A stretch of 64,000 nt of DNA from Polyangiales bacterium (lineage in GTDB: Bacteria; Myxococcota_A; Polyangia; Polyangiales; Ga0077539), in the NCBI GenBank assembly GCA_044229975.1, contig JBGARZ010000001.1:160001-224000 (forward strand). The letters run 5' to 3'. Under the pieces are notes generated by a model that searched no databases, was not told the DNA's origin, and saw nothing but the letters and a program-made list of their open reading frames with translations. The number at the start of each line of letters is the position of its first letter. Within the stretch, counting starts at the first letter, position 1. The translations under genes were made by a program, and so were the position numbers. This document shows positions 37,150 through 48,682 of the stretch, one piece after another.

Positions 37150-38042
37150 GCGAGGCCCTCTTCGAAGACGACTGTCCCGTCGCCGCGCAGCGTGACCCGC
37201 GCGCCCTGCACCCACGGGCGATGCACGGTGCCGTGTCCGAAGGGAGCTCCCGCCAGGACGGGCACGCCGAGCGACCCCAATCGCTCGCGCAAGACCTCCT
37301 CGACAGTGACCCCATCGCGGCCGGGCTCACATCGAACGAACCCTCCCGACACCACGCCCACCACACCGTCGAGCGCGCCCGACGAGCGCAGCGTCGTGAG
37401 CATGCGATCGACGCGGTAGGGCGCTTCGCCGACCTCCTCCACGAAGAGCACCCGACCGCGCAGATCGAGCTGCCAGGGTGTCCCCACCAGGGCCGCGAGC
37501 AGCGCGAGGTTGCCGCCCGCCGCGACACCCGTGACAGTGCCCGCCGACCACGCCTGCAACCCCGTCCACGGCGCCGGAACAGCGCCCTCCAGCACCGCGA
37601 CGAGCTCGTCGTCACCGCCGCAGCGACCGAGGCCCAGCACCATGGTCCCGTGCACCGAGCGAACGCCCGCCCGCGACCACACCGCGTGCAGCGCCGTGAT
37701 GTCGCTGAACCCCACCAGGGGCTTCGGATCGTCGCGCAGCGTCGCGACCCAGCGATCCGCGTGTCCATCGAGCAAGCGCGTCGCTCCGTAGCCGCCGCGC
37801 GCCGCAACCACGGCTCGCACGGTGCGATCGGTGATGGCCGTCGTGACGTCCGCCGCCCGCGCGTCATCGGCGCCTGCGAGGAAGCCAGCGCGCTCTCTCG
37901 CTGAGGCACCGACGCTCACCCGGTAGCGCGTCGCGCACCACGCGAGGCCGACGTCGAGCGCGTCAGAGTCGACCGCCCCGCTCGGCGACACCACCGCGAT
38001 GGCGTCACCCGCCTTCAGCGGAGCGAGCGGGGGAAAGGTCAC
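37146..38042 (-). CDS. LD-carboxypeptidase (peptidase S66, LdcA-like)
   Basis: IAVVSPSG, ARGGYG, GFSDITALH, GGNL, EEVGE.PYRVDRML, PFGH. Confidence 0.9.
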   Translation of the reverse strand: MTFPPLAPLKAGDAIAVVSPSGAVDSDALDVGLAWCATRYRVSVGASARERAGFLAGADDARAADVTTAITDRTVRAVVAARGGYGATRLLDGHADRWVATLRDDPKPLVGFSDITALHAVWSRAGVRSVHGTMVLGLGRCGGDDELVAVLEGAVPAPWTGLQAWSAGTVTGVAAGGNLALLAALVGTPWQLDLRGRVLFVEEVGEAPYRVDRMLTTLRSSGALDGVVGVVSGGFVRCEPGRDGVTVEEVLRERLGSLGVPVLAGAPFGHGTVHRPWVQGARVTLRGDGTVVFEEGLA

Positions 38043-38905
38043 GGCTTGACCGGGCGACGACCGTCGGCCGTGAGCAGCACGTCGTAGAGGTCGGCGCGTC
38101 GATCGCGGAAGAAGCCCCAGGCCCCACGCATCCGGCGCGTCTCGGCGAGGTCGAAGGTCGCGATGGCAGCGCCCTCTTCGGTGCGCGACAGCTCGGCCAC
38201 CTTGTCGCCGCGGTGGTTGGCGCAGAACGAACTGCCGTAGAAGACCTGTCCCTCTTCGGTTCCGATGCGGTTGGCGCCGCACACGGGGACGATGTTGGAC
38301 ACGGCGTGGCCGATCATCGCGCGCTGCCACGGGTCGCGGGTGTCGAGCGTCGGGTCGTGCGGCTCGCTCCCGATGGCGGTCGGGTAGAGCAGCAGCTCGG
38401 CGCCCATCAGCATCATCGCGCGGGCGCACTCGGGGTACCACTGGTCCCAGCAGATGCCGACGCCGAGGCTGCCGTGGCGGGTGTTCCAGACCTTGAAGCC
38501 AGTGTCGCCGGGGCGGAAGTAGAACTTCTCCTCGTAGCCCGGACCATCGGGGATGTGGCTCTTGCGGTAGAGGCCCATCACCGTTCCGTCGGCGTCGACC
38601 ATCGCGAGGCTGTTGTAGTAGGCCTGCCCCGCGCGCTCGAAGAACGACACCGGGATCACCACCCCGAGCTCACGCGCCAGGTCGGCGAAGCGGGCGATGG
38701 TGGGGTTGCCCTCGAAGGGCATCGCGCGGAGCAGTTCGCGCTCGTCCTCGACCCGGCAGAAGTACGGCCCCTCGAAGAGCTCGGGCGGAAGGATGACGTT
38801 GGCGCCCTTCGCGGCGGCGGCGCGGACGTGATCGACGACCCGCGCGGTGTTGGTCTCGCGGTCATCACCGAGGGGACATTGGAGTACGGCGACGGTGGTG
38901 TTCAT
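38039..38905 (-). CDS. aguB: N-carbamoylputrescine amidase
   Basis: Nitrilase triad: PELF, YRKSHIPDGPGYEEKFYF, GICWDQWYPE; YPTAIGSEP. Confidence 0.93.
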   Translation of the reverse strand: MNTTVAVLQCPLGDDRETNTARVVDHVRAAAAKGANVILPPELFEGPYFCRVEDERELLRAMPFEGNPTIARFADLARELGVVIPVSFFERAGQAYYNSLAMVDADGTVMGLYRKSHIPDGPGYEEKFYFRPGDTGFKVWNTRHGSLGVGICWDQWYPECARAMMLMGAELLLYPTAIGSEPHDPTLDTRDPWQRAMIGHAVSNIVPVCGANRIGTEEGQVFYGSSFCANHRGDKVAELSRTEEGAAIATFDLAETRRMRGAWGFFRDRRADLYDVLLTADGRRPVKP

Positions 38906-39930
38906 GGGCGTGCCTTCGGCGAGGGCTGCTGCTGCGAGATGCAGTGGAACGCACCGCCGCCCGCGAGGATGGCGAGCGCGTCGACGGCCTCGACCCGGCG
39001 ACCCGGGAAGAGCTTCTCCACGGCCATCAGCGCCGCGTCGTCGTAGGTGGTCTGGTAGGTCGGCACCACCACCGTGCGGTTGCCGATGTAGAAGTTGAGG
39101 TGACTGGCGGGCATCACGCGGCCGTCGTGGTCTTCGACACGGCCCGGCGACGGCACGAACACCAGCTCGATGGGGCGGCCGAGGGCGTCGCGCTGGCCGG
39201 TGAGCTCGTCGCGCAGGCGGTGGAGGATGTCGCGGTTGGGATCATCGCTGCCCGACGGCTCCATGAGCGCGACGACGCCGGGCGCGACGAAGCGTGCGAT
39301 GGTGTCGATGTGGCCGTCGGTGTGGTCGTTGAGGAGGCCGTCGGTGACCCACAGCATCCGCTCGCCACCGAAGGCATCGAGCACCGCGCGGGTGATGGCC
39401 GACTCGTCGAGCCCGGGGTTGCGGTTGGGGTTGAGCAGACACTGTCGCGAGGTGAGCACCGTCCCATCGCCGTCGACCTCGATGCTGCCGCCCTCCAACA
39501 CCAGGTCGTGGCGCACCGTGCGAAGGCCCGCCGCGAGGGCGACGCGACCGCTCACCTCAGCGTCGTGGGGCAGGTCGTACTTGCCACCCCAGCCGTTGAA
39601 GGCGAAGCACGAAGCGACCACCGCGCCGGACGCGTCGTGCATGAAGACGGGCGCCGTGTCGCGCACCCAGATGTCGCCGAAGGGGATGGCGTGGAAGCGC
39701 GCGTCGAGGCCGTCGAGGGCGGTGCGCGCGAGGGCCTCGTTGGCGGGGTCGGGGCAGAGCACGTCGAGGCGCTCGCCGCCGTCGCGGGCGATGGCGCGGG
39801 CGAGTTCGACGAAGGACTCGCGGGCATCGGGGAGCGCCTCCTGCCAGAGGTGTTCGTGGCTCGGCCAGGCGAGCCAGACCGCGTCGTGGTGGGCCCACTC
39901 GGCGGGCTGTCGAAGGAGGTCGGTAGCCAT
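38902..39930 (-). CDS. aguA: Agmatine deiminase
   Basis: PAEW, WVRD, FNGWGGKY, EGGSI, HTDGHID, GGGAFHCISQQ. Confidence 0.93.
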   Translation of the reverse strand: MATDLLRQPAEWAHHDAVWLAWPSHEHLWQEALPDARESFVELARAIARDGGERLDVLCPDPANEALARTALDGLDARFHAIPFGDIWVRDTAPVFMHDASGAVVASCFAFNGWGGKYDLPHDAEVSGRVALAAGLRTVRHDLVLEGGSIEVDGDGTVLTSRQCLLNPNRNPGLDESAITRAVLDAFGGERMLWVTDGLLNDHTDGHIDTIARFVAPGVVALMEPSGSDDPNRDILHRLRDELTGQRDALGRPIELVFVPSPGRVEDHDGRVMPASHLNFYIGNRTVVVPTYQTTYDDAALMAVEKLFPGRRVEAVDALAILAGGGAFHCISQQQPSPKARP

Positions 39931-40015
39931 ATGGGGCGCGGACACTACTACCGCGACGCAGACGGAGCGAGCGTTGGCCCGACCGCAGGCGTTGTGCTCT
40001 CTTTCGCGCCCTCCC

Positions 40016-41107
40016 ATGGACGCCCGACACGAAGAACTCTCCACCGAGCTCGCCGCCGCCGCGGTGCGCGCACTCAACGAAGACTGGCGCAACCTCAACT
40101 ACGGCCTCTTCCAGGACCGCATGCGGCCGCCCTCGATGCTGCTCTCGTCGGCGACCGGCTTCCTCGGTCGCTGGGTGCGCGTCGGTCGCACCATCGAGAT
40201 GTCGCGGAGCTTCATCCTCGCCCAGCCCTGGGGCGTCGTCATGGAAGTGCTGAAGCACGAGATGGCGCACCAGTACGTCGACGAGGTCATCGGCGTGCGT
40301 GACGAGACCGCCCACGGCCCGGTGTTCCAGAAGGTGTGCGCCGACCGCGGCATCGACGGTGGCGCGACGGGCGTCCCCACGGCGAGCGGCGGCGGTGACC
40401 CGGGCACGGCCGCGGTGCTCGACAAGATCGCCAAGCTCCTCGCGCTCGCCGGCAGTCCCAACGAGCACGAGGCCCAGCTCGCGATGAACACCGCGCAGAA
40501 GCTGATGCTCAAGCACAACCTCGACGCGGTGCGCGCGAAGGCGGCGCGGGGGTACATCCACAAGCACCTCGGCGAGCCCACCGGGCGGGTGGAGGAGGCG
40601 GCGCGCTACCTCGCGGCGATCCTGTCGGAGCACTTCTTCGTGCAGTGCATCTGGGTCGGCGTGTGGCGCGTGCGCGAGGGCAAGTCGGGCTCGGTGCTGG
40701 AGGTCATCGGCACGACCGAAAACGTCGCCATGGCGGAGTACGTGTACTCGTTTCTCGACCACACGGCCGACGCCCAGTGGACGCTGCACAAGCGCGCCAA
40801 CAACATCCGCGTCGACCGCGACCGCCGCGCCTTCCGCACTGGCGTGATGATGGGCTTCTTGGAGAAGCTGCGCGCCGAGCGGAAGGGCCAGCAGGAGACC
40901 GGGCTCGTGTGGGCGGGCGATCCGGCGCTGGAGGCGCACTACCACCGGCGGTATCCGCGCATCCGCGCGATCAGTCGATCGGGGGCGACACGCACCGAGG
41001 CCCACGCGGAAGGCCGCGAGGCGGGCAAGACCCTCGTGCTGCACAAGGGCGTCGATGGTGGGAGAGGGTCGTCGGGCGGCGGCGGGTTGCTCGGCCCGTC
41101 GCGCTGA
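40016..41107 (+). CDS. SprT-like zinc metalloprotease domain fused to DUF2786-like domain
   Basis: LGRW, VLKHEMAHQ...HGPVF; KIAKLLALAGSPNEHEA..A..AQKLMLKHNL. Confidence 0.8.
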   Translation: MDARHEELSTELAAAAVRALNEDWRNLNYGLFQDRMRPPSMLLSSATGFLGRWVRVGRTIEMSRSFILAQPWGVVMEVLKHEMAHQYVDEVIGVRDETAHGPVFQKVCADRGIDGGATGVPTASGGGDPGTAAVLDKIAKLLALAGSPNEHEAQLAMNTAQKLMLKHNLDAVRAKAARGYIHKHLGEPTGRVEEAARYLAAILSEHFFVQCIWVGVWRVREGKSGSVLEVIGTTENVAMAEYVYSFLDHTADAQWTLHKRANNIRVDRDRRAFRTGVMMGFLEKLRAERKGQQETGLVWAGDPALEAHYHRRYPRIRAISRSGATRTEAHAEGREAGKTLVLHKGVDGGRGSSGGGGLLGPSR

Positions 41108-43104: not shown

Positions 43105-44958
43105 TCAGTCGTCGGGGTCGTCGTCGGAGTGATGGCGGTGACGGCGGTGGGTCGAGCGGTGCGTGCTGTGGCGCCGCGAACGGTGGCGGCGGTGGTGGTC
43201 GTCGTCCTCTTCGACCGCGGCATCCATCGGGGCAGCCATGACGGCTGCGTCGGCCGCGACCGAAGCGTCGGCCGTGACCGAAGCGTCGGCCATCACCGAG
43301 ACGTCCATGGTGGTCGCGGCATCGATCACCACGGCCGCGTCGAGGGTGACCACGGCGGCGACAGGCGGAGCGACGGCGGGTGGAGCGGGTGGGGCCGCCG
43401 CGATGACCGGGCGCGGTGGCGGTGATGGCCGGAGGAGGGCGACGGCGGGCGGGTTGCGGGTGAAGGTTCCGCGCAGGAGGAGCACGAACGCGCCGCAGAC
43501 GAGGCCGCCGAAGACGAGGCCGAGGGCCACCAGAAGCGCGCCCGCGGCACGGCGGGAGCGAGGCGGCGGACGAATCGACGAGGACGAACGCAGGGGCGGG
43601 TACGACGGAGCGACGAGCTCGGGCGGGGTATACGGGACCTCGTCGGCGGGCTCGTCGATCGCGAACTCGACGGGCTCTTCCGGCGGCGGCGCTGGAGGTG
43701 GTGTCGGCGGTCCCGGACGGAAGGTCCCGCGCGGCGGAACCGAGGCGGACGCCATCACCGTCGTGGTTCGCCCCTCGTCGTCGACGGGCTGCGGCGGACG
43801 CGACGACGGCGACGGTGGGTGCGACGACGGCGGCGCGATGGAGGGCGTGTAGCGCGGCACCTCGATGCGAGCGATGCCATCGGAGGGCGTCGGGAAGCCC
43901 GGCATGAGCTCCGTCGAGGACGGCGGCATCGACGAGTGGCGGACCTCGCTCTGCGAGGGCGTGCGACGGTGGGTGCCCGTCTGCGAGCTCCAGAGGTCGG
44001 AGTCGTGGTCGTCGACACCGGGCGGCAGGGCGTTCATCAGGGCGGAGAGAAACTCCGCCGCGTGCTCGTAGCGGTCGCTCGGCCGCAGCGCGAGGGCGCG
44101 AGCAAACACGGGCTCCCACGGCCCCACATCGACGCCGCGCTCACCCGGCGTGGGGCGACGCGGGGACAGCACGTTGGCGCACATCTCCATGGCGTCGCCG
44201 CCCTCGAAGGGAATCTGCGCGGTGAGCATCTCGGACATGAGCAGCGCGAGCGCGTGCACGTCCGTCCACGGCCCCGTGCGCATCCCGCTCACCTGCTCCG
44301 GCGCGGCGTAGTCGGGAGAGAAGGCCTGCACCTGCGTGAGCGTCTGCGCGCGATCGGCCCGGCGCTCTTCGGTGCCCATCACCTTCGCGATGCCGAAGTC
44401 CAACAGCTTGAGCCGCGCGTTGCCGCGGCGGCCGGTCACGATCATCAGGTTGCCGGGCTTGATGTCGCGGTGGACGATGCCCTCCTCGTGGGCGATGCCC
44501 ACGGCCTCGATGACCGGGTACATCAGCGCGATGGTCTCGGCCGGCGTGCGCCCCGACGAGCCGGTCTCGATGCGCTGGTTGAAGTCCGCTTCGAGCGTCA
44601 CGCCCTCCAGCCACTCCAACGCCATCCACGGCGCCTTGGCCCCGCTCGGCATGATGGACGTCCCGAAATCCAGCACCCGCACGATGTGCGCGTGATCGAG
44701 CTGCGCGACGGTGCGCGCCTCCTCCGTGAAGCGCAGCAGGAACTCCTTCTGCTGCCGCTGCGTGAGGTCGCTCGGGGTCTTGAGCACCTTGATGGCGACG
44801 GGCTTCCGCAGCTCGCGGTGCTGCGCCCGGTACACCACCCCGAAGCCGCCTTGCGCGACCACGCCGACGACGTCGTAGCGAGAGTCGAGGCGCGCACCCA
44901 CCAGGCCAAACGGGTCGACCCGACCCTCGGATGTTGTTGCGGCGGGCTTCACACTCAT
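43105..44958 (-). CDS. Serine/threonine protein kinase, Pro-rich linker, single TM
   Basis: AQGGFGVVY, VAIKVL, HRDIKPGNL, DFG, YAAPEQ. Confidence 0.92.
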   Translation of the reverse strand: MSVKPAATTSEGRVDPFGLVGARLDSRYDVVGVVAQGGFGVVYRAQHRELRKPVAIKVLKTPSDLTQRQQKEFLLRFTEEARTVAQLDHAHIVRVLDFGTSIMPSGAKAPWMALEWLEGVTLEADFNQRIETGSSGRTPAETIALMYPVIEAVGIAHEEGIVHRDIKPGNLMIVTGRRGNARLKLLDFGIAKVMGTEERRADRAQTLTQVQAFSPDYAAPEQVSGMRTGPWTDVHALALLMSEMLTAQIPFEGGDAMEMCANVLSPRRPTPGERGVDVGPWEPVFARALALRPSDRYEHAAEFLSALMNALPPGVDDHDSDLWSSQTGTHRRTPSQSEVRHSSMPPSSTELMPGFPTPSDGIARIEVPRYTPSIAPPSSHPPSPSSRPPQPVDDEGRTTTVMASASVPPRGTFRPGPPTPPPAPPPEEPVEFAIDEPADEVPYTPPELVAPSYPPLRSSSSIRPPPRSRRAAGALLVALGLVFGGLVCGAFVLLLRGTFTRNPPAVALLRPSPPPRPVIAAAPPAPPAVAPPVAAVVTLDAAVVIDAATTMDVSVMADASVTADASVAADAAVMAAPMDAAVEEDDDHHRRHRSRRHSTHRSTHRRHRHHSDDDPDD

Positions 44959-45111
44959 GCGCGGGGGATGCGGCCGCGGCGACGCTAACACATCTCCCCC
45001 GGCAGATGAGCCACGCGGCGCGAGGCCACGCGCGCGACGGACGAGGTCAGCGTCCCTGGAAGGTTGCGTCGCGGACAGCGCTGGCATATCTCGCTAGAAG
45101 GAACCCCTCCC

Positions 45112-45936
45112 ATGCCCTCGTTTCTCGTCTACCGCCTGGGGCAGCCGATGCGGCGGCTGACTTTCGAGACGCCCCCGATTCGTGTCGGGCGCGACCCGGA
45201 GAACGACATCGTGATCCGCAGCGAGACGCTCTCGCGCGAGCACGCGATGTTTCTCCAGGACGAGAGCAAGCGCTGGTACGTGACCTGTGTGTCCGAGACC
45301 AACCCCATCGTGGTGGGGGGCAAGCTCGTCGCGAAGTCGGCGCCGGTCGCCGACATGAGCGAGATCCTGGTGGGCAACGAGTGCCTGATCATCTTCGTGA
45401 CCAACCCGGCCAACGCGGCGCACCTCGTCGACTCCAAGTCGACCCAGCAGGTGGTCTGCCCGCAGTGCTGGTGGACCGCGATGATGTCCATCTACAACAA
45501 CCACGCGAACTGTCCGCGCTGTGGCGGCGGCCCGCTCGCACCGGCCGAAGAGCCGCTGCCGGGCACCGAGGACGGCGCCGCCCCGCTCGACGCCAGCACC
45601 CGCATGATGAGCGGCGTCGAGCTGCGATCGTCGTACCGCATCATGCGCGAGGCCAAGCGCTCGGTGCTGCTGCGCACCGACCAGTACGGCGGGAGGAAGT
45701 TTCTCTCCGAGAGCGAGACGGTGGAGATCACCAAGGACAACCCGGACATGCCCCTCAAGGGGATGTTCGTGGGCGGCGGCTTCACGCTCGCGTGGGACGG
45801 TCAGAGCTGGACCATCGAAAACCACCTCTCGTGGCGTCGGCTCTTCGTCAACGGGCAGTCGGTCAACACGACGCAGCTCAAGATGGGCGACGTCATCGAG
45901 GTCGGCTCCAACCGCTTCCAGCTCACCTCCGAGTAG
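45112..45936 (+). CDS. Protein with N-terminal FHA domain, central Zn-ribbon and C-terminal FHA-like domain
   Basis: VGRDPENDIVI..LSREHA; CPQC...CPRCGG; LFVNG...LKMGDVIEVG. Confidence 0.78.
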   Translation: MPSFLVYRLGQPMRRLTFETPPIRVGRDPENDIVIRSETLSREHAMFLQDESKRWYVTCVSETNPIVVGGKLVAKSAPVADMSEILVGNECLIIFVTNPANAAHLVDSKSTQQVVCPQCWWTAMMSIYNNHANCPRCGGGPLAPAEEPLPGTEDGAAPLDASTRMMSGVELRSSYRIMREAKRSVLLRTDQYGGRKFLSESETVEITKDNPDMPLKGMFVGGGFTLAWDGQSWTIENHLSWRRLFVNGQSVNTTQLKMGDVIEVGSNRFQLTSE

Positions 45937-47389
45937 CGCGCGACTCTTCGAGCAGCTCGCGCGCCGCGATGCGCAGGATGCGCGGAAGCACGAAGCGAAA
46001 CACCTCGCAGTAGGGACTCCGACCGTCGACGTGACCGTCACGGCGGTGCAGCAACAGAGGACACCCGCCGGCGCACGAGTGCTTGAAGCGACACGCGTCG
46101 CAGGTGTCGTTGGGCGATCGCTTCTGGAAGGTCGCGCCCATCACCTCGGGGGCCATCCTCAATAGCGCGGTGTCGGGTTCGAGCGCGGCTGATCCTTCGC
46201 GGTGCAAGCCCGCCTGGCAGGGTGACAGCCGACCGTCGTGGGAGACCGCGAGGGAGCGCTCGCCCGCGGCGCAGGCCCGCCCGATGGGTTGCCGCCATTG
46301 CAGGTCGCAGAAGCGGTGCGTGCGGCGAAACGACGGTCGCACGGGCATCGCGCGCTCGATGCGGTCGTAACACTCGCCGAAGACGCGCAGCACCCGCGCG
46401 AGCGCATCGCCCTCCAACATCGGGGCTTCAGCGGGACTCGGGCGTGACGCGCGACGGAGCTTCACGAGACCCGCGCCGGGGCGCCAGCCGGGGAGGCGCG
46501 CGTCGAGCAGCGCGTCGCCGCCGTCGAGGTCGCGCACGAGCGAGTAGCGGAAGCCCATCTCGCGGCCGAGGAGCCAGTCGGTGAGCGCGGGGATTCCGTC
46601 GAGGTTGTCGGCGGAGACGGTGACGAGCGCGTAGGGGCGCAGGCCCGCCGCGACGAAGGCGTCGAGGCCGCGCTGGAGGTCGTCGAAGGACCCGCCGCCG
46701 CCGAGCGCGGGGCGCATGGTGTCCTGCGCGGCGCCGACGCCGTCGATGGACACGCTCACGGAGACGTCGTGGTCGCGCATCCAGCGGGCGGCGTCGTCGG
46801 GGACGGTGGTCCCGTTGGTGAGCACGGCCGCGGTGAGCGTGGCGCCTTCGCGGGCGAGCAGCGCGCGGGTCTCTTCGAAGAAGGTTCGGATGAACCCGAA
46901 GCGCAGCAGCGGCTCTCCCCCGGCGAAGCGGAGGTGAACCGCGCGCACGCCGTCCTCGCGCACGGTGGCGAGCAGCGACGACTGGAGCGCCCGCGCGGTG
47001 TCGTCGGAGAGCGAGCGGCCGTCCTTCTCGATGTAGCAGTAGGGGCAGTCGAGGTTGCACGCGTTGGTGACGTGAACCCAGAGGTCGAGCGAGCGCGGCG
47101 CGGGCCTCGACGGCGGCGGAACCGGGAGACCGTGGCCGGTGACGAAGCCGTTGCGCGCGAGCATCGGGAGCTCTCGCGCGAGGGACTCGACGGGGCGTCC
47201 GAGCGTCGCGGCGAGGTCGCGGAGGGGACGGCCGTCGGCGAGGTCGAGCAGCGAGGCGGCGTCGCGGGAGAGCAGGGCGAGGGCGTCGCGGCCGCGCGGG
47301 TTGTGCACGAAGCGCCGACCCTCGACGATGCCCAGGTAGAGCCCCTCGGCGCGACGAACGCGGGCTTCGGCGAGATCATGGACGGACAC
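45923..47389 (-). CDS. Radical SAM/SPASM enzyme with N-terminal RRE (PqqD-like) domain; putative peptide/protein maturase
   Basis: CNLDCPYC; FAGGEPLL, TNGT, SIDG; SPASM C-X12-G-X4-C ... CDAC-X5-C-X3-C ... YC; N-terminal region with strand-then-helix pattern ending LARNGFV. Confidence 0.9.
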   Translation of the reverse strand: MSVHDLAEARVRRAEGLYLGIVEGRRFVHNPRGRDALALLSRDAASLLDLADGRPLRDLAATLGRPVESLARELPMLARNGFVTGHGLPVPPPSRPAPRSLDLWVHVTNACNLDCPYCYIEKDGRSLSDDTARALQSSLLATVREDGVRAVHLRFAGGEPLLRFGFIRTFFEETRALLAREGATLTAAVLTNGTTVPDDAARWMRDHDVSVSVSIDGVGAAQDTMRPALGGGGSFDDLQRGLDAFVAAGLRPYALVTVSADNLDGIPALTDWLLGREMGFRYSLVRDLDGGDALLDARLPGWRPGAGLVKLRRASRPSPAEAPMLEGDALARVLRVFGECYDRIERAMPVRPSFRRTHRFCDLQWRQPIGRACAAGERSLAVSHDGRLSPCQAGLHREGSAALEPDTALLRMAPEVMGATFQKRSPNDTCDACRFKHSCAGGCPLLLHRRDGHVDGRSPYCEVFRFVLPRILRIAARELLEESRATRR

Positions 47390-47395
47390 GCGCCG

Positions 47396-48682
47396 TCACC
47401 AGTCCGACGAGCAGTCGCTCGAACAGTCGGAGCTGCAATCGCTCGAACAGTCGCTGGAGCAGTCGGAGCTGCAATCGCTGGAGCAATCCGAGGAGGAGCA
47501 GTCCGATGAGGAGTTGCAATCCGACGACGACCAGTCGGAGTCCTTGGAGCAGTCGCTGGAGACGCAGTCCGCGCAGTCGGTCTTGGTGACGCAGTCGGAG
47601 CAGTCGGCGGAGTTCCAGTCGGAGGTGGACGACCACGCGGGGTCGCTGGCGTAGACCGAGCCGTAGTCGGCGAGGTCGATGGGCTGGTCGGAGGGCGAGC
47701 CGAAGTCGTGACCGGCGAGCGAGTCGATGCCCGCGAACTTGTCCTCCATCGAGGGGATCGCATCGAACTCGCCCACGAGCGCGCCATCGGTGCGAACGAT
47801 GTGCACCGGCATCTCCCACGACCCGTGCATGTCGTGGTGATGGTGGTGGTGCATCGCGGCGTGCACGGCCGCGTCGAGGACGATGAGGTCGACCCAGTCG
47901 GAGTACGGGTCGCGGTAATAGACGTCCCAGGGGTCGTAGTAGGCCGACGGGTACGGCGGCGCGCGAAACCGCGTGTCGGTGCGCAGCGTCGGCGCCCGCA
48001 TCGCGGCGGCGTCGCGGGCCATGGCCTGCACCGCGCGCGGCGTCGGCTGCACCACCCGCGAGACGGTCGCGTACTCCTCGACCCTCGACCCGGGCAGCGC
48101 ATACGCGAGCCCGTCGCGCGCGCGGCCGACGAGGCCCTTGAAGACGTGCTGATGCGGCTTCGCCCGGTAGGGGTCGGCGCCCATGGCGGAGACGCGCGCC
48201 CGGGTCTGCGCGAAGGTCTCGCCGGGCAGCGGGCGCAGCTCCTCGATGCGCCCGCCGAAGGCGATGACCCCGGCGGCCGTCCCTGGCTGGAAGCGCGACT
48301 GGAAGGTCGCCTCGATGAGCGAGTGCACCCCCTGCTCGTGGTGCTCGAAGATCGCCCGCACCTCGCGAAATGGCTTCGTGAACCGCTGCGGCTGGGAGCG
48401 CATCGCCTGGAGCAGCCAGTGTGCGTCGTCGGCGTTGCCGAGCTCGTCGCGCCACACCACGGCGTCGTCGAGCAGCACGGCCACGGCGTCGCGCACCCCG
48501 AAGCTGAGCAGCAGGTTGCCCACCGCCTCGACGAGGCCGAGCGCGTGCATGCCGTGTTCGAGCTGACCCGAGCGCAGGTCGTGCTTCGCGCCGAAGGCCG
48601 CCGTGCAGGACTCCCAGAACGTCGGGCTACGCATGGCCTCACGGCCTGGCAGCCACACCCAGAGTCGAGCCGTCATTCGCAT
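47396..48682 (-). CDS. Hypothetical protein with His-rich segment and C-terminal (S/A/T)DC repeat tail; putative radical SAM target
   Basis: 428-aa ORF; tail ...SSDCSSDCSSDCSSDW; stop codon 6 bp before the radical SAM start. Confidence 0.8.
   Translation of the reverse strand: MRMTARLWVWLPGREAMRSPTFWESCTAAFGAKHDLRSGQLEHGMHALGLVEAVGNLLLSFGVRDAVAVLLDDAVVWRDELGNADDAHWLLQAMRSQPQRFTKPFREVRAIFEHHEQGVHSLIEATFQSRFQPGTAAGVIAFGGRIEELRPLPGETFAQTRARVSAMGADPYRAKPHQHVFKGLVGRARDGLAYALPGSRVEEYATVSRVVQPTPRAVQAMARDAAAMRAPTLRTDTRFRAPPYPSAYYDPWDVYYRDPYSDWVDLIVLDAAVHAAMHHHHHHDMHGSWEMPVHIVRTDGALVGEFDAIPSMEDKFAGIDSLAGHDFGSPSDQPIDLADYGSVYASDPAWSSTSDWNSADCSDCVTKTDCADCVSSDCSKDSDWSSSDCNSSSDCSSSDCSSDCSSDCSSDCSSDCSSDCSSDCSSDW
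47399..47608 (-). repeat. Coding repeat region: 14 Asp-Cys units, mostly SSDC
   Basis: ADC SDC TDC ADC SSDC, then SSSDC x3, SSDC x6, SSDW; synonymous codons vary between units. Confidence 0.9.

Follow-up and report, generated by a model that had tools for sequence, protein, structure and literature searches.

What does a radical S-adenosylmethionine (SAM) enzyme act on when the gene beside its own encodes not a short precursor peptide but a protein of 428 amino acids (aa) ending in a run of Asp-Cys (DC) pairs? The question is raised by two adjoining genes in a 64,000-nucleotide stretch of a Polyangiales bacterium (NCBI GenBank assembly GCA_044229975.1, contig JBGARZ010000001.1, positions 160,001 to 224,000 of the forward strand), which we call the window and to whose first letter all coordinates below refer. 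The upstream gene encodes the tailed protein (P0001, the carrier) and the downstream one an enzyme (P0002) that combines an RRE (recognition element of RiPPs, ribosomally made peptides that are modified after translation), a radical SAM core and a SPASM domain. Here, we reason that the tail is very probably what the enzyme acts upon, and that each of its Cys may become joined to the Asp standing before it.

47396..48682, minus strand: carrier protein P0001, 428 aa, with an alpha/beta folded body and a disordered Asp-Cys tail; no match in Pfam or NCBIfam
47396..47605, minus strand: Asp-Cys tail of P0001 (aa 360-428), 14 DC units, ending in SSDW; pLDDT (local distance difference test, predicted value) <50, predicted to be disordered; likely substrate
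47390..47395, no strand: intergenic gap between P0001 and P0002, 6 bp
45923..47389, minus strand: P0002, RRE-radical SAM/SPASM enzyme, 488 aa, GTG start

Rechecking of the coordinates bore out the gene pair as it had been described in an earlier, sequence-only reading: the two genes are co-oriented on the minus strand, with 6 bp between the stop of P0001 and the start of P0002. Both frames have a coding-type GC content at third codon positions (0.93 and 0.90), which supports them, and the three overlapping long open reading frames (ORFs) that were tested proved to be shadow patterns. A scan for promoters and terminators returned nothing exceeding chance. Among sequencing runs, a look-up listed none of RNA and only small shares of DNA.

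Fourteen of the 15 Cys of P0001 lie in its last 68 residues (361-424), each with an Asp immediately before it (the remaining one is C26), just as had been counted before. The description of the tail as (SSDC)n held for the 14 DC units and failed for a pure repeat, as the Cys spacings are irregular (3, 6, 3, 5, 11, 6, 5, and then 4 six times). The ten exact SSDC units are encoded by ten different 12-mers, which indicates that the repeat is kept at the protein level and does not stem from fresh DNA slippage; among the 134,180 six-frame ORFs of the 10-Mb genome, the DC-rich C-terminus is unique to P0001. Across 41 distinct tails (chosen for at least four DC) Asp stands before 413 of 414 Cys, and when the counting starts from a fixed body column (34 distinct carriers) it precedes 34/34 first Cys and 357/358 of all Cys, at a background of 10.5%. 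Even isolated Cys (those with the next Cys at least six residues on) have Asp at -1 in 59/59 cases, and at +3/+4 in 19/59. The invariant unit of the tail is DC, and not the CxxxD of PapB type. In one carrier (L012:2-796) the tail is rich in His, (DCSH)n, which hints at metal binding.

The association between tail and enzyme was followed in 401 genomes of the phylum and in 31 genomes of the organism's own family (overlapping sets, whose counts are not to be summed). The body of the carrier was found in 35 of the phylum genomes and the enzyme clade in 28. All the DC-tailed bodies (23/23) reside in enzyme-bearing genomes, as opposed to none of the 11 bodies with other tails (SSCG 0/4, Cys-free 0/7; one further body is cut by a contig end). 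The enzyme is encoded directly downstream in 17 of the 23, lies 4-6 kb away in three and on another contig in three; hence, the expectation that tail-bearing homologues always neighbour this radical SAM clade is borne out for the shared genome and not for adjacency (6/23). Within the own family the enzyme is present in 12 genomes, and the DC tail in 10 of these 12 and in 0/19 of the rest; the two enzyme-bearing genomes lacking it are a 76%-complete assembly and one of 1850 contigs. A DC carrier stands directly upstream of the enzyme in 14/21 clade loci from the species collection and in 6/7 metagenomic ones (the seventh begins at a contig edge), and the distances among bodies correlate with those among enzymes (23 pairs, rho 0.66, 0/2000 permutations). 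DNA patterns for DC repeats, which also match other frames, (DC)n and extracellular Cys repeats, led us to read 29 new loci, of which only four carrier loci held true tails; no true DC tail was present among the pattern loci read in enzyme-lacking genomes. Because tail and enzyme clade co-occur without exception on the side of the tail (23/23), the tail is very probably the substrate of the P0002 clade, and this inference of the sequence-only reading is retained at that strength.

The same tail is also found on other proteins. Five membrane proteins with a TPM domain (PF04536) end in DC...DW tails; they belong to genomes (G012, G440, G441) in which the enzyme is present and the body absent, and their genes are unlinked to that of the enzyme. 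The 12 TPM matches in the family comprise these five, five with Cys-free Gly/Ser tails in four enzyme-lacking genomes (four of the five match the TPM domain only, and are hence looser relatives) and two cut by contig ends. In two of the TPM carriers a single membrane helix is followed by basic residues and then by the tail, which suggests that the tail is cytoplasmic. As the same tail stands on unrelated TPM proteins, the body of about 350 aa, which had been noted as unusual in place of a short leader, is not required as a leader; instead of a core preceded by a 350-aa leader, the Asp-Cys tail is probably a portable tag. In the TPM-tail genomes the enzyme gene follows a glutamate-cysteine ligase (GCS2) gene, and a second enzyme copy in G440 follows a ferrochelatase gene (loci L198, L268, L269 and L016, of genus g5; L017).

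Bodies with SSCG tails were found to adjoin another Cys-modifying enzyme in 4/4 cases: an MNIO/DUF692 gene lies upstream of the carrier in G096, G146 and G181 (L195, L196, L197), and an SbtM-family radical SAM gene downstream of it in G159 (L194:5340-9275; 481 vs 350 bits). At seven loci with Cys-free tails (of which 6-14 kb was read, contig ends cutting some short) the MNIO and enzyme profiles had no match. Given that SSCG tails adjoin MNIO or SbtM while the Cys-free loci match neither, these four cases support the view that the tails may be modification tags matched to enzymes. SbtM as the general partner of SSCG tails was rejected (above cut-off in 2/4 SSCG and 0/6 Cys-free genomes), MNIO accounting for 3/4. 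The SSCGSSCGGG-tailed homologues of the carrier are candidate large-protein substrates for thiooxazole-type enzymes.

The enzyme itself shows the following features:

47120..47389, minus strand: RRE-like N-terminal domain (about aa 1-90), from the AlphaFold model and the CteB profile alignment
47036..47059, minus strand: CxxxCxxC SAM-cluster motif (C111, C115, C118)
46913..46930, minus strand: R154-F-A156-GGE strand, with Ala at the site of CteB Phe152; the residue two positions earlier is basic and invariant
46301..46312, minus strand: F-C361-D-L motif upstream of the SPASM hairpin, with the eighth of the invariant Cys; present in 27/27 intact clade members
46007..46273, minus strand: SPASM domain, with C373/C391/C443 assigned to auxiliary cluster I (AuxI; CteB alignment) and C430/C433/C439/C461 to auxiliary cluster II (AuxII)

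P0002 matches PF04055 (56.5 bits, cut-off 29.5), and the CxxxCxxC motif that had been pointed out in it is present. Nine further Cys follow (340, 361, 373, 391, 430, 433, 439, 443, 461), eight of which are invariant in the C-terminal region of 27/27 clade members, with C340 variable (14/27); the SPASM set is thus complete as claimed, though it counts eight invariant Cys instead of seven. The proposed N-terminal RRE is supported by two approaches: in an AlphaFold model (built on 6 sequences) residues 1-90 form 3-4 strands and 3 helices with pLDDT mostly >80 (<50 in the SPASM region), and the profile of the 27 clade members has CteB as its best match among solved structures (E 7.5e-32), aligning from position 35 inside the N-terminal domain/RRE of CteB. 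A PqqD match was absent in the Pfam scan. Foldseek placed CteB, TigE and anSME first for the model, with anSME just behind the other two. R154 is invariant in the clade and [RK][YF]AGGE is kept in 96/99 relatives; we infer that this strand is a candidate contact for an Asp carboxylate. None of the full-length NCBIfam models listed was matched by P0002 above its cut-off, the best score being that of the PapB family NF047865 (106.4 bits, cut-off 340), alongside QhpD TIGR03906 (100.1, cut-off 453), anSME TIGR03942 (79.5, cut-off 349.45; an RRE is present in P0002), CrpC TIGR04463 (68.9, cut-off 525) and the Cys-every-fifth enzyme CefB NF038107 (65 vs 600); the CXXX-repeat model TIGR04115 was not in its best 25 NCBIfam matches. 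By sequence, the P0002 clade is an unnamed radical SAM clade outside the curated families.

A target attached to a large protein had been considered the unusual part, and it is no longer without precedent: Dieter et al. 2026 report that the TIGR04463 enzyme CrpC installs ranthionines on the 28.8-kDa Cys-rich protein CrpA (PMC13692751), so that a large protein's Cys-rich tail as the target of a radical SAM enzyme is already on record. The likeness lies in an RRE-radical SAM/SPASM enzyme adjoining a large protein whose C-terminus is repetitive and rich in Cys, and in a modified protein as the product (probable for P0001); however, CrpA has a repeat of 17 residues (CxxQ/D, with the Cys before the acceptor) and CrpC seven SPASM Cys, whereas P0001/P0002 have the DC unit, eight Cys and a tail that moves between unrelated carriers (PMC13692751). 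PapB (freyrasin), CteB/Tte1186 (SCIFF) and QhpD share with P0002 the RRE-radical SAM-SPASM order, seven SPASM Cys that align and conserved Cys and Asp in the substrate, but P0002 falls far below the cut-offs (106 vs 340, 100 vs 453, 65 vs 425), the order is Asp-then-Cys and there is no short leader peptide. The partners of RRE-dependent RiPP maturases are short processed precursors, unlike the 428-aa protein found here. Enteropeptin, made by KgrC, contains a six-membered thiomorpholine ring, the size that an Asp-Calpha link would give (PMC12395415), although (compared by description) its acceptor is N-methylornithine, its substrate a short peptide and KgrC a divergent sactisynthase (PMC10288494). 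Repeated Asp-Cys motifs beside uncharacterised enzymes were called unpredictable by Kostenko et al. 2022, whose cluster 59 places a radical SAM/SPASM enzyme beside an Asp-Cys motif repeated up to six times; it differs (again by description only) in its short peptide, its recombinase and enzymes of 340-450 aa (PMC9062424). TIGR04222 proteins associated with MNIO are likewise large, with disordered Ser/Gly/Cys tails of which only some are linked to a Cys-modifying enzyme (PMC12452194), whereas P0001 has the DC tail, a radical SAM enzyme and no TIGR04222 match or membrane helix found. In the literature, most subscription journals lying outside the search, we came across no account of the P0002 clade, large carriers with DC tails or DC motifs fused to enzymes (see below). 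The kind of system is already known (large-protein thioether systems of QhpD and CrpC/TIGR04463).

The next-closest enzymes (22-38% identity; Chloroflexota, Cyanobacteria, others) carry DC motifs of their own. Of the 99 distinct N-termini, drawn from 131 loci, 88 have such motifs (e.g., DDCACPD) fused 100-135 residues before the SAM motif, amounting to 168 DC vs 27 in shuffles (maximum 42). Separate DC-rich peptides adjoin further related enzymes (L281:3-335, L284:7099-7272, L292:7289-7453; one cut by a contig edge); C361 is shared by the enzymes of L281 and L292, and is missing from the fused-motif relatives. In the widespread fused DCAC(P)/DCDC group (L031-L088, L282-L353; e.g., L032:4806-6302) the motifs come before the RRE, and many of the genes are situated behind large ATPase/TPR genes, which we take to be STAND-like. 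It is possible that the fused-motif enzymes modify themselves and are tied to signalling or defence loci. In the enzyme tree (FastTree, long-branch outgroups, no characterised enzyme included) the myxobacterial clade forms one starred branch, and a single DC-specific enzyme superclade does not emerge from it.

We propose that the portable DC tail is converted unit by unit, with the Cys sulfur joined to the preceding Asp, and assign this chemistry a probability of about 0.42; that a thioether of some kind is formed on the tail is probable. The adjacent Asp is ranked first because it is the only invariant partner of the Cys and because enteropeptin offers the precedent of a six-membered thiomorpholine ring (PMC12395415). 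Following known SPASM chemistry, SAM cleavage would produce a 5'-deoxyadenosyl radical able to abstract H from the Asp, whose carboxylate would be held by the invariant Arg154, while the Cys thiolate would be held on AuxI before the C-S bond to the adjacent Asp is made (H abstraction and a Cys held at AuxI are reported for PapB and Tte1186; PMC10177961). Attack at Asp Cbeta would close a 7-membered ring and at Calpha a 6-membered thiomorpholinone, with an expected mass change of -2 Da per unit, for up to 14 units. The modification would take place in the cytoplasm (no membrane segment was found in P0001, and the tails of two TPM carriers come after a membrane helix and basic residues). Since none of the seven neighbour genes tested is common across the enzyme clade, and neither a dedicated peptidase nor a dedicated exporter came to light, the product would probably be a modified whole protein, and a secreted RiPP was rejected. 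Soft-metal binding is our best guess for the role and the weakest step of the proposal; for comparison, the MNIO-made thiooxazoles of bufferins bind copper (PMC12452194). We regard as doubtful the broader scheme in which, across Myxobacteria, one trans-acting clade would form a 6- or 7-membered thioether at every DC of portable tags, with no carrier-specific leader, the same carrier family would have exchanged this tag for SSCG tags served by MNIO/SbtM, and the fused-motif group would do the same chemistry on its own N-terminus.

Several observations weigh against the adjacent-Asp proposal, some bearing on the coupling between tail and enzyme and others on the chemistry. Regarding the former, kin are not independent (DC-tailed bodies amount to 2 changes on a quick tree and 22/23 phylum cases are from one family), so that Fisher values for co-occurrence overstate it, and the correlation of body and enzyme distances may only mirror shared descent. 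The enzyme occurs without the body in 5 phylum genomes, and DNA patterns revealed no DC tail in four of these, 4/28 of the enzyme-bearing ones (G109, G124, G178, G275; 94-95% complete; a looser pattern was run on three of them). The orphan enzymes of three genus g120 genomes appear intact, with aligned enzymes of g120 type (L019, L020, L023) keeping all motifs, and the four orphans count against a strict tail-enzyme coupling. In g120 the carrier gene is absent from its place between the enzyme and the membrane gene that usually lies upstream (L184 vs L199), a gap that looks like secondary loss. In favour of the coupling, the orphan enzyme of G275 (L183:7007-8500) has partly lost its RRE and has Ser at the C361 site. 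(The latter, degenerate gene directly follows an RND efflux operon; ACR_tran, OEP.) Were the tail a low-complexity appendage that travels with an unrelated radical SAM gene by linkage alone, its few independent origins on the body tree would be accounted for; yet the co-occurrence persists in 6 genomes with unlinked genes and on another protein family (the unlinked TPM cases already largely refute such hitch-hiking), and in several phyla related enzymes are again accompanied by DC motifs, which leaves this explanation highly improbable. The seemingly intact enzymes of g120 genomes without a carrier gene also agree with an unmodified appendage that binds metal or Fe-S through thiolate and carboxylate, the enzyme having another substrate or drawing a cluster or sulfur from the tail, and metal chelation by DC repeats might need no modification (the His-rich tail of L012 is in line with this). 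We consider it improbable: the RRE is a peptide-binding domain, a chelator needs no enzyme, yet no true DC tail turned up at the pattern loci read in enzyme-lacking genomes, and the SSCG tails, which contain Cys too, pair with other Cys-modifying enzymes.

As for the chemistry, the known Asp-acceptor ranthisynthases, and also CrpC, need the acceptor to be C-terminal to the Cys (PMC12373016, PMC13692751), a direction opposite to the one we propose. This agrees with a ladder of PapB/CrpC type, in which each Cys would be linked to a later residue, in most cases the next unit's Asp (CxxD/CxxxD), with the Asp at -1 serving for recognition only. Asp is found at +3 of 266/413 tail Cys and at +4 of 80/399, Asp/Glu at +3/+4 in 104/168 fused motifs, and Asp follows the last Cys in 38/41 distinct tails; moreover, PapB tolerates spacings from i+1 to i+7 (PMC12373016), CrpC acts on ACAGM, CAVD and CPLVL motifs, all with the Cys before the acceptor (PMC13692751), and PapB and QhpD are the nearest NCBIfam models. 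A period of 4-5 residues, however, places Asp at +3/+4 automatically; in isolated units, where it does not, the share drops to 19/59 (about 20% is expected from background) while -1 stays at 59/59, and Cys-free tails, in the body family as in TPM proteins, have the terminal D/DW too. The ladder of PapB/QhpD type, which the sequence-only reading had favoured, is less in keeping with this conservation and is ranked second, as rather unlikely for these tails, the more so as the acceptor of PapB must lie C-terminal to the Cys (PMC12373016) and the invariant Asp lies before it. The other objection concerns C361, which might fill the open AuxI site used by thioether synthases (PMC10177961, PMC6231123), and the active site, in which only 2/6 catalytic-proximity positions (after Precord et al., PMC10288494; compared with CteB only) are identical: Y119/A156/T191/S214/Q392/A393 in P0002 vs F/F/T/S/H/Q in CteB. 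With AuxI fully ligated by C361, the DC units might undergo an anSME-like Cys oxidation (thioaldehyde/formylglycine), an epimerisation in which C361 donates the H, or some other rearrangement. The eight C-terminal Cys invariant in 27/27 members equal the number in anSME, where the clusters are fully ligated (PMC6231123), anSME comes close behind CteB/TigE by fold, the proximity profile is unlike that of CteB, and the sister SSCG carriers pair with thiooxazole-type enzymes (MNIO, SbtM). But C361 aligns to a strand position of CteB (MIDL) and stands 12 residues ahead of the first SPASM Cys, compared with 6 in anSME, the equivalent conserved Cys of SkfB is about 12 A from the cluster and does not ligate it (PMC6231123), and the fused-motif relatives do without C361; we consider a non-thioether outcome unlikely.

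The part of P0001 that bears the tail belongs to an uncharacterised family:

47708..48682, minus strand: body of P0001 (about aa 1-325), uncharacterised family
47906..47941, minus strand: conserved YYDPWxxYYxDP motif (aa 248-259), also in family members without DC tail

A profile search (E <=0.001) gathered 253 representatives of the body family, and the 150 of them that were listed end in DC repeats, in SSCGSSCGGG-type tails, in acidic Cys-free tails or in no tail. For 74 bodies, cut to 300 aa each, a quick tree unites the 21 DC rows (accounting for 2 changes) with 9 Cys-free rows in one clade and places the SSCG rows in another. Neither Pfam nor NCBIfam matched P0001 (TIGR04222 included), ESM Atlas yielded for it only unnamed hypothetical clusters (0.90-0.91) and, for aa 1-230, nothing usable among named clusters, and the fold search of the body gave no Foldseek match at E <=0.001 and no sequence match in PDB. 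The best VIA match of the body (Z 7.5 over 96 residues) is to a common alpha/beta arrangement, from which we draw no function. No membrane helix was found in P0001 (best 19-residue hydropathy 1.63). The YYDP motif was rejected as an enzyme-specific leader, as the Cys-free relatives carry it too. A run of six His in the body (aa 278-284, about 47830-47850) varies among relatives.

Around the pair, a divergent Ser/Thr kinase gene and a gene with two FHA domains occupy 43105-45936, the latter converging on P0002 with a 14-bp overlap. This FHA gene recurred in 0/45 loci, and the metallophosphoesterase and kinase neighbours are restricted to the genus of P0001/P0002. In family f32 an unannotated single-pass membrane protein gene lies 5' of the carrier (18/45 loci tested; see L199:3433-4431 and, for g120 with its missing carrier, L184:8996-9667), and an MscS channel gene is usually 3' of the enzyme. 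Elsewhere in the window (38039-40098, minus strand) a PAD_porph peptidyl-arginine/agmatine deiminase gene is paired with that of a carbon-nitrogen hydrolase, the usual putrescine route and ordinary. Outside the window, contig C30 (G000) has a very large radical SAM gene cluster: of the genome's 54 ORFs with a radical SAM motif, about 23 fall within a span of about 135 kb there.

Taken for what it says about its bearers, the DC tail provides a two-residue substrate code for an unnamed radical SAM clade, and points to RiPP-type chemistry that is probably applied to whole cytoplasmic and membrane proteins by means of a transferable tail. The system offers short, testable substrates for Asp-Cys motifs, and if the adjacent-Asp ring is true, its cross-link geometry would be one of which we met no description for Asp, and it might serve as a genetically encodable tag. 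Many bacterial proteins end in low-complexity Ser/Gly/Cys tails, and for these the swap of tail together with enzyme (DC with the P0002 clade, SSCG with MNIO/SbtM, Cys-free with neither) suggests an interpretation that can be tested.

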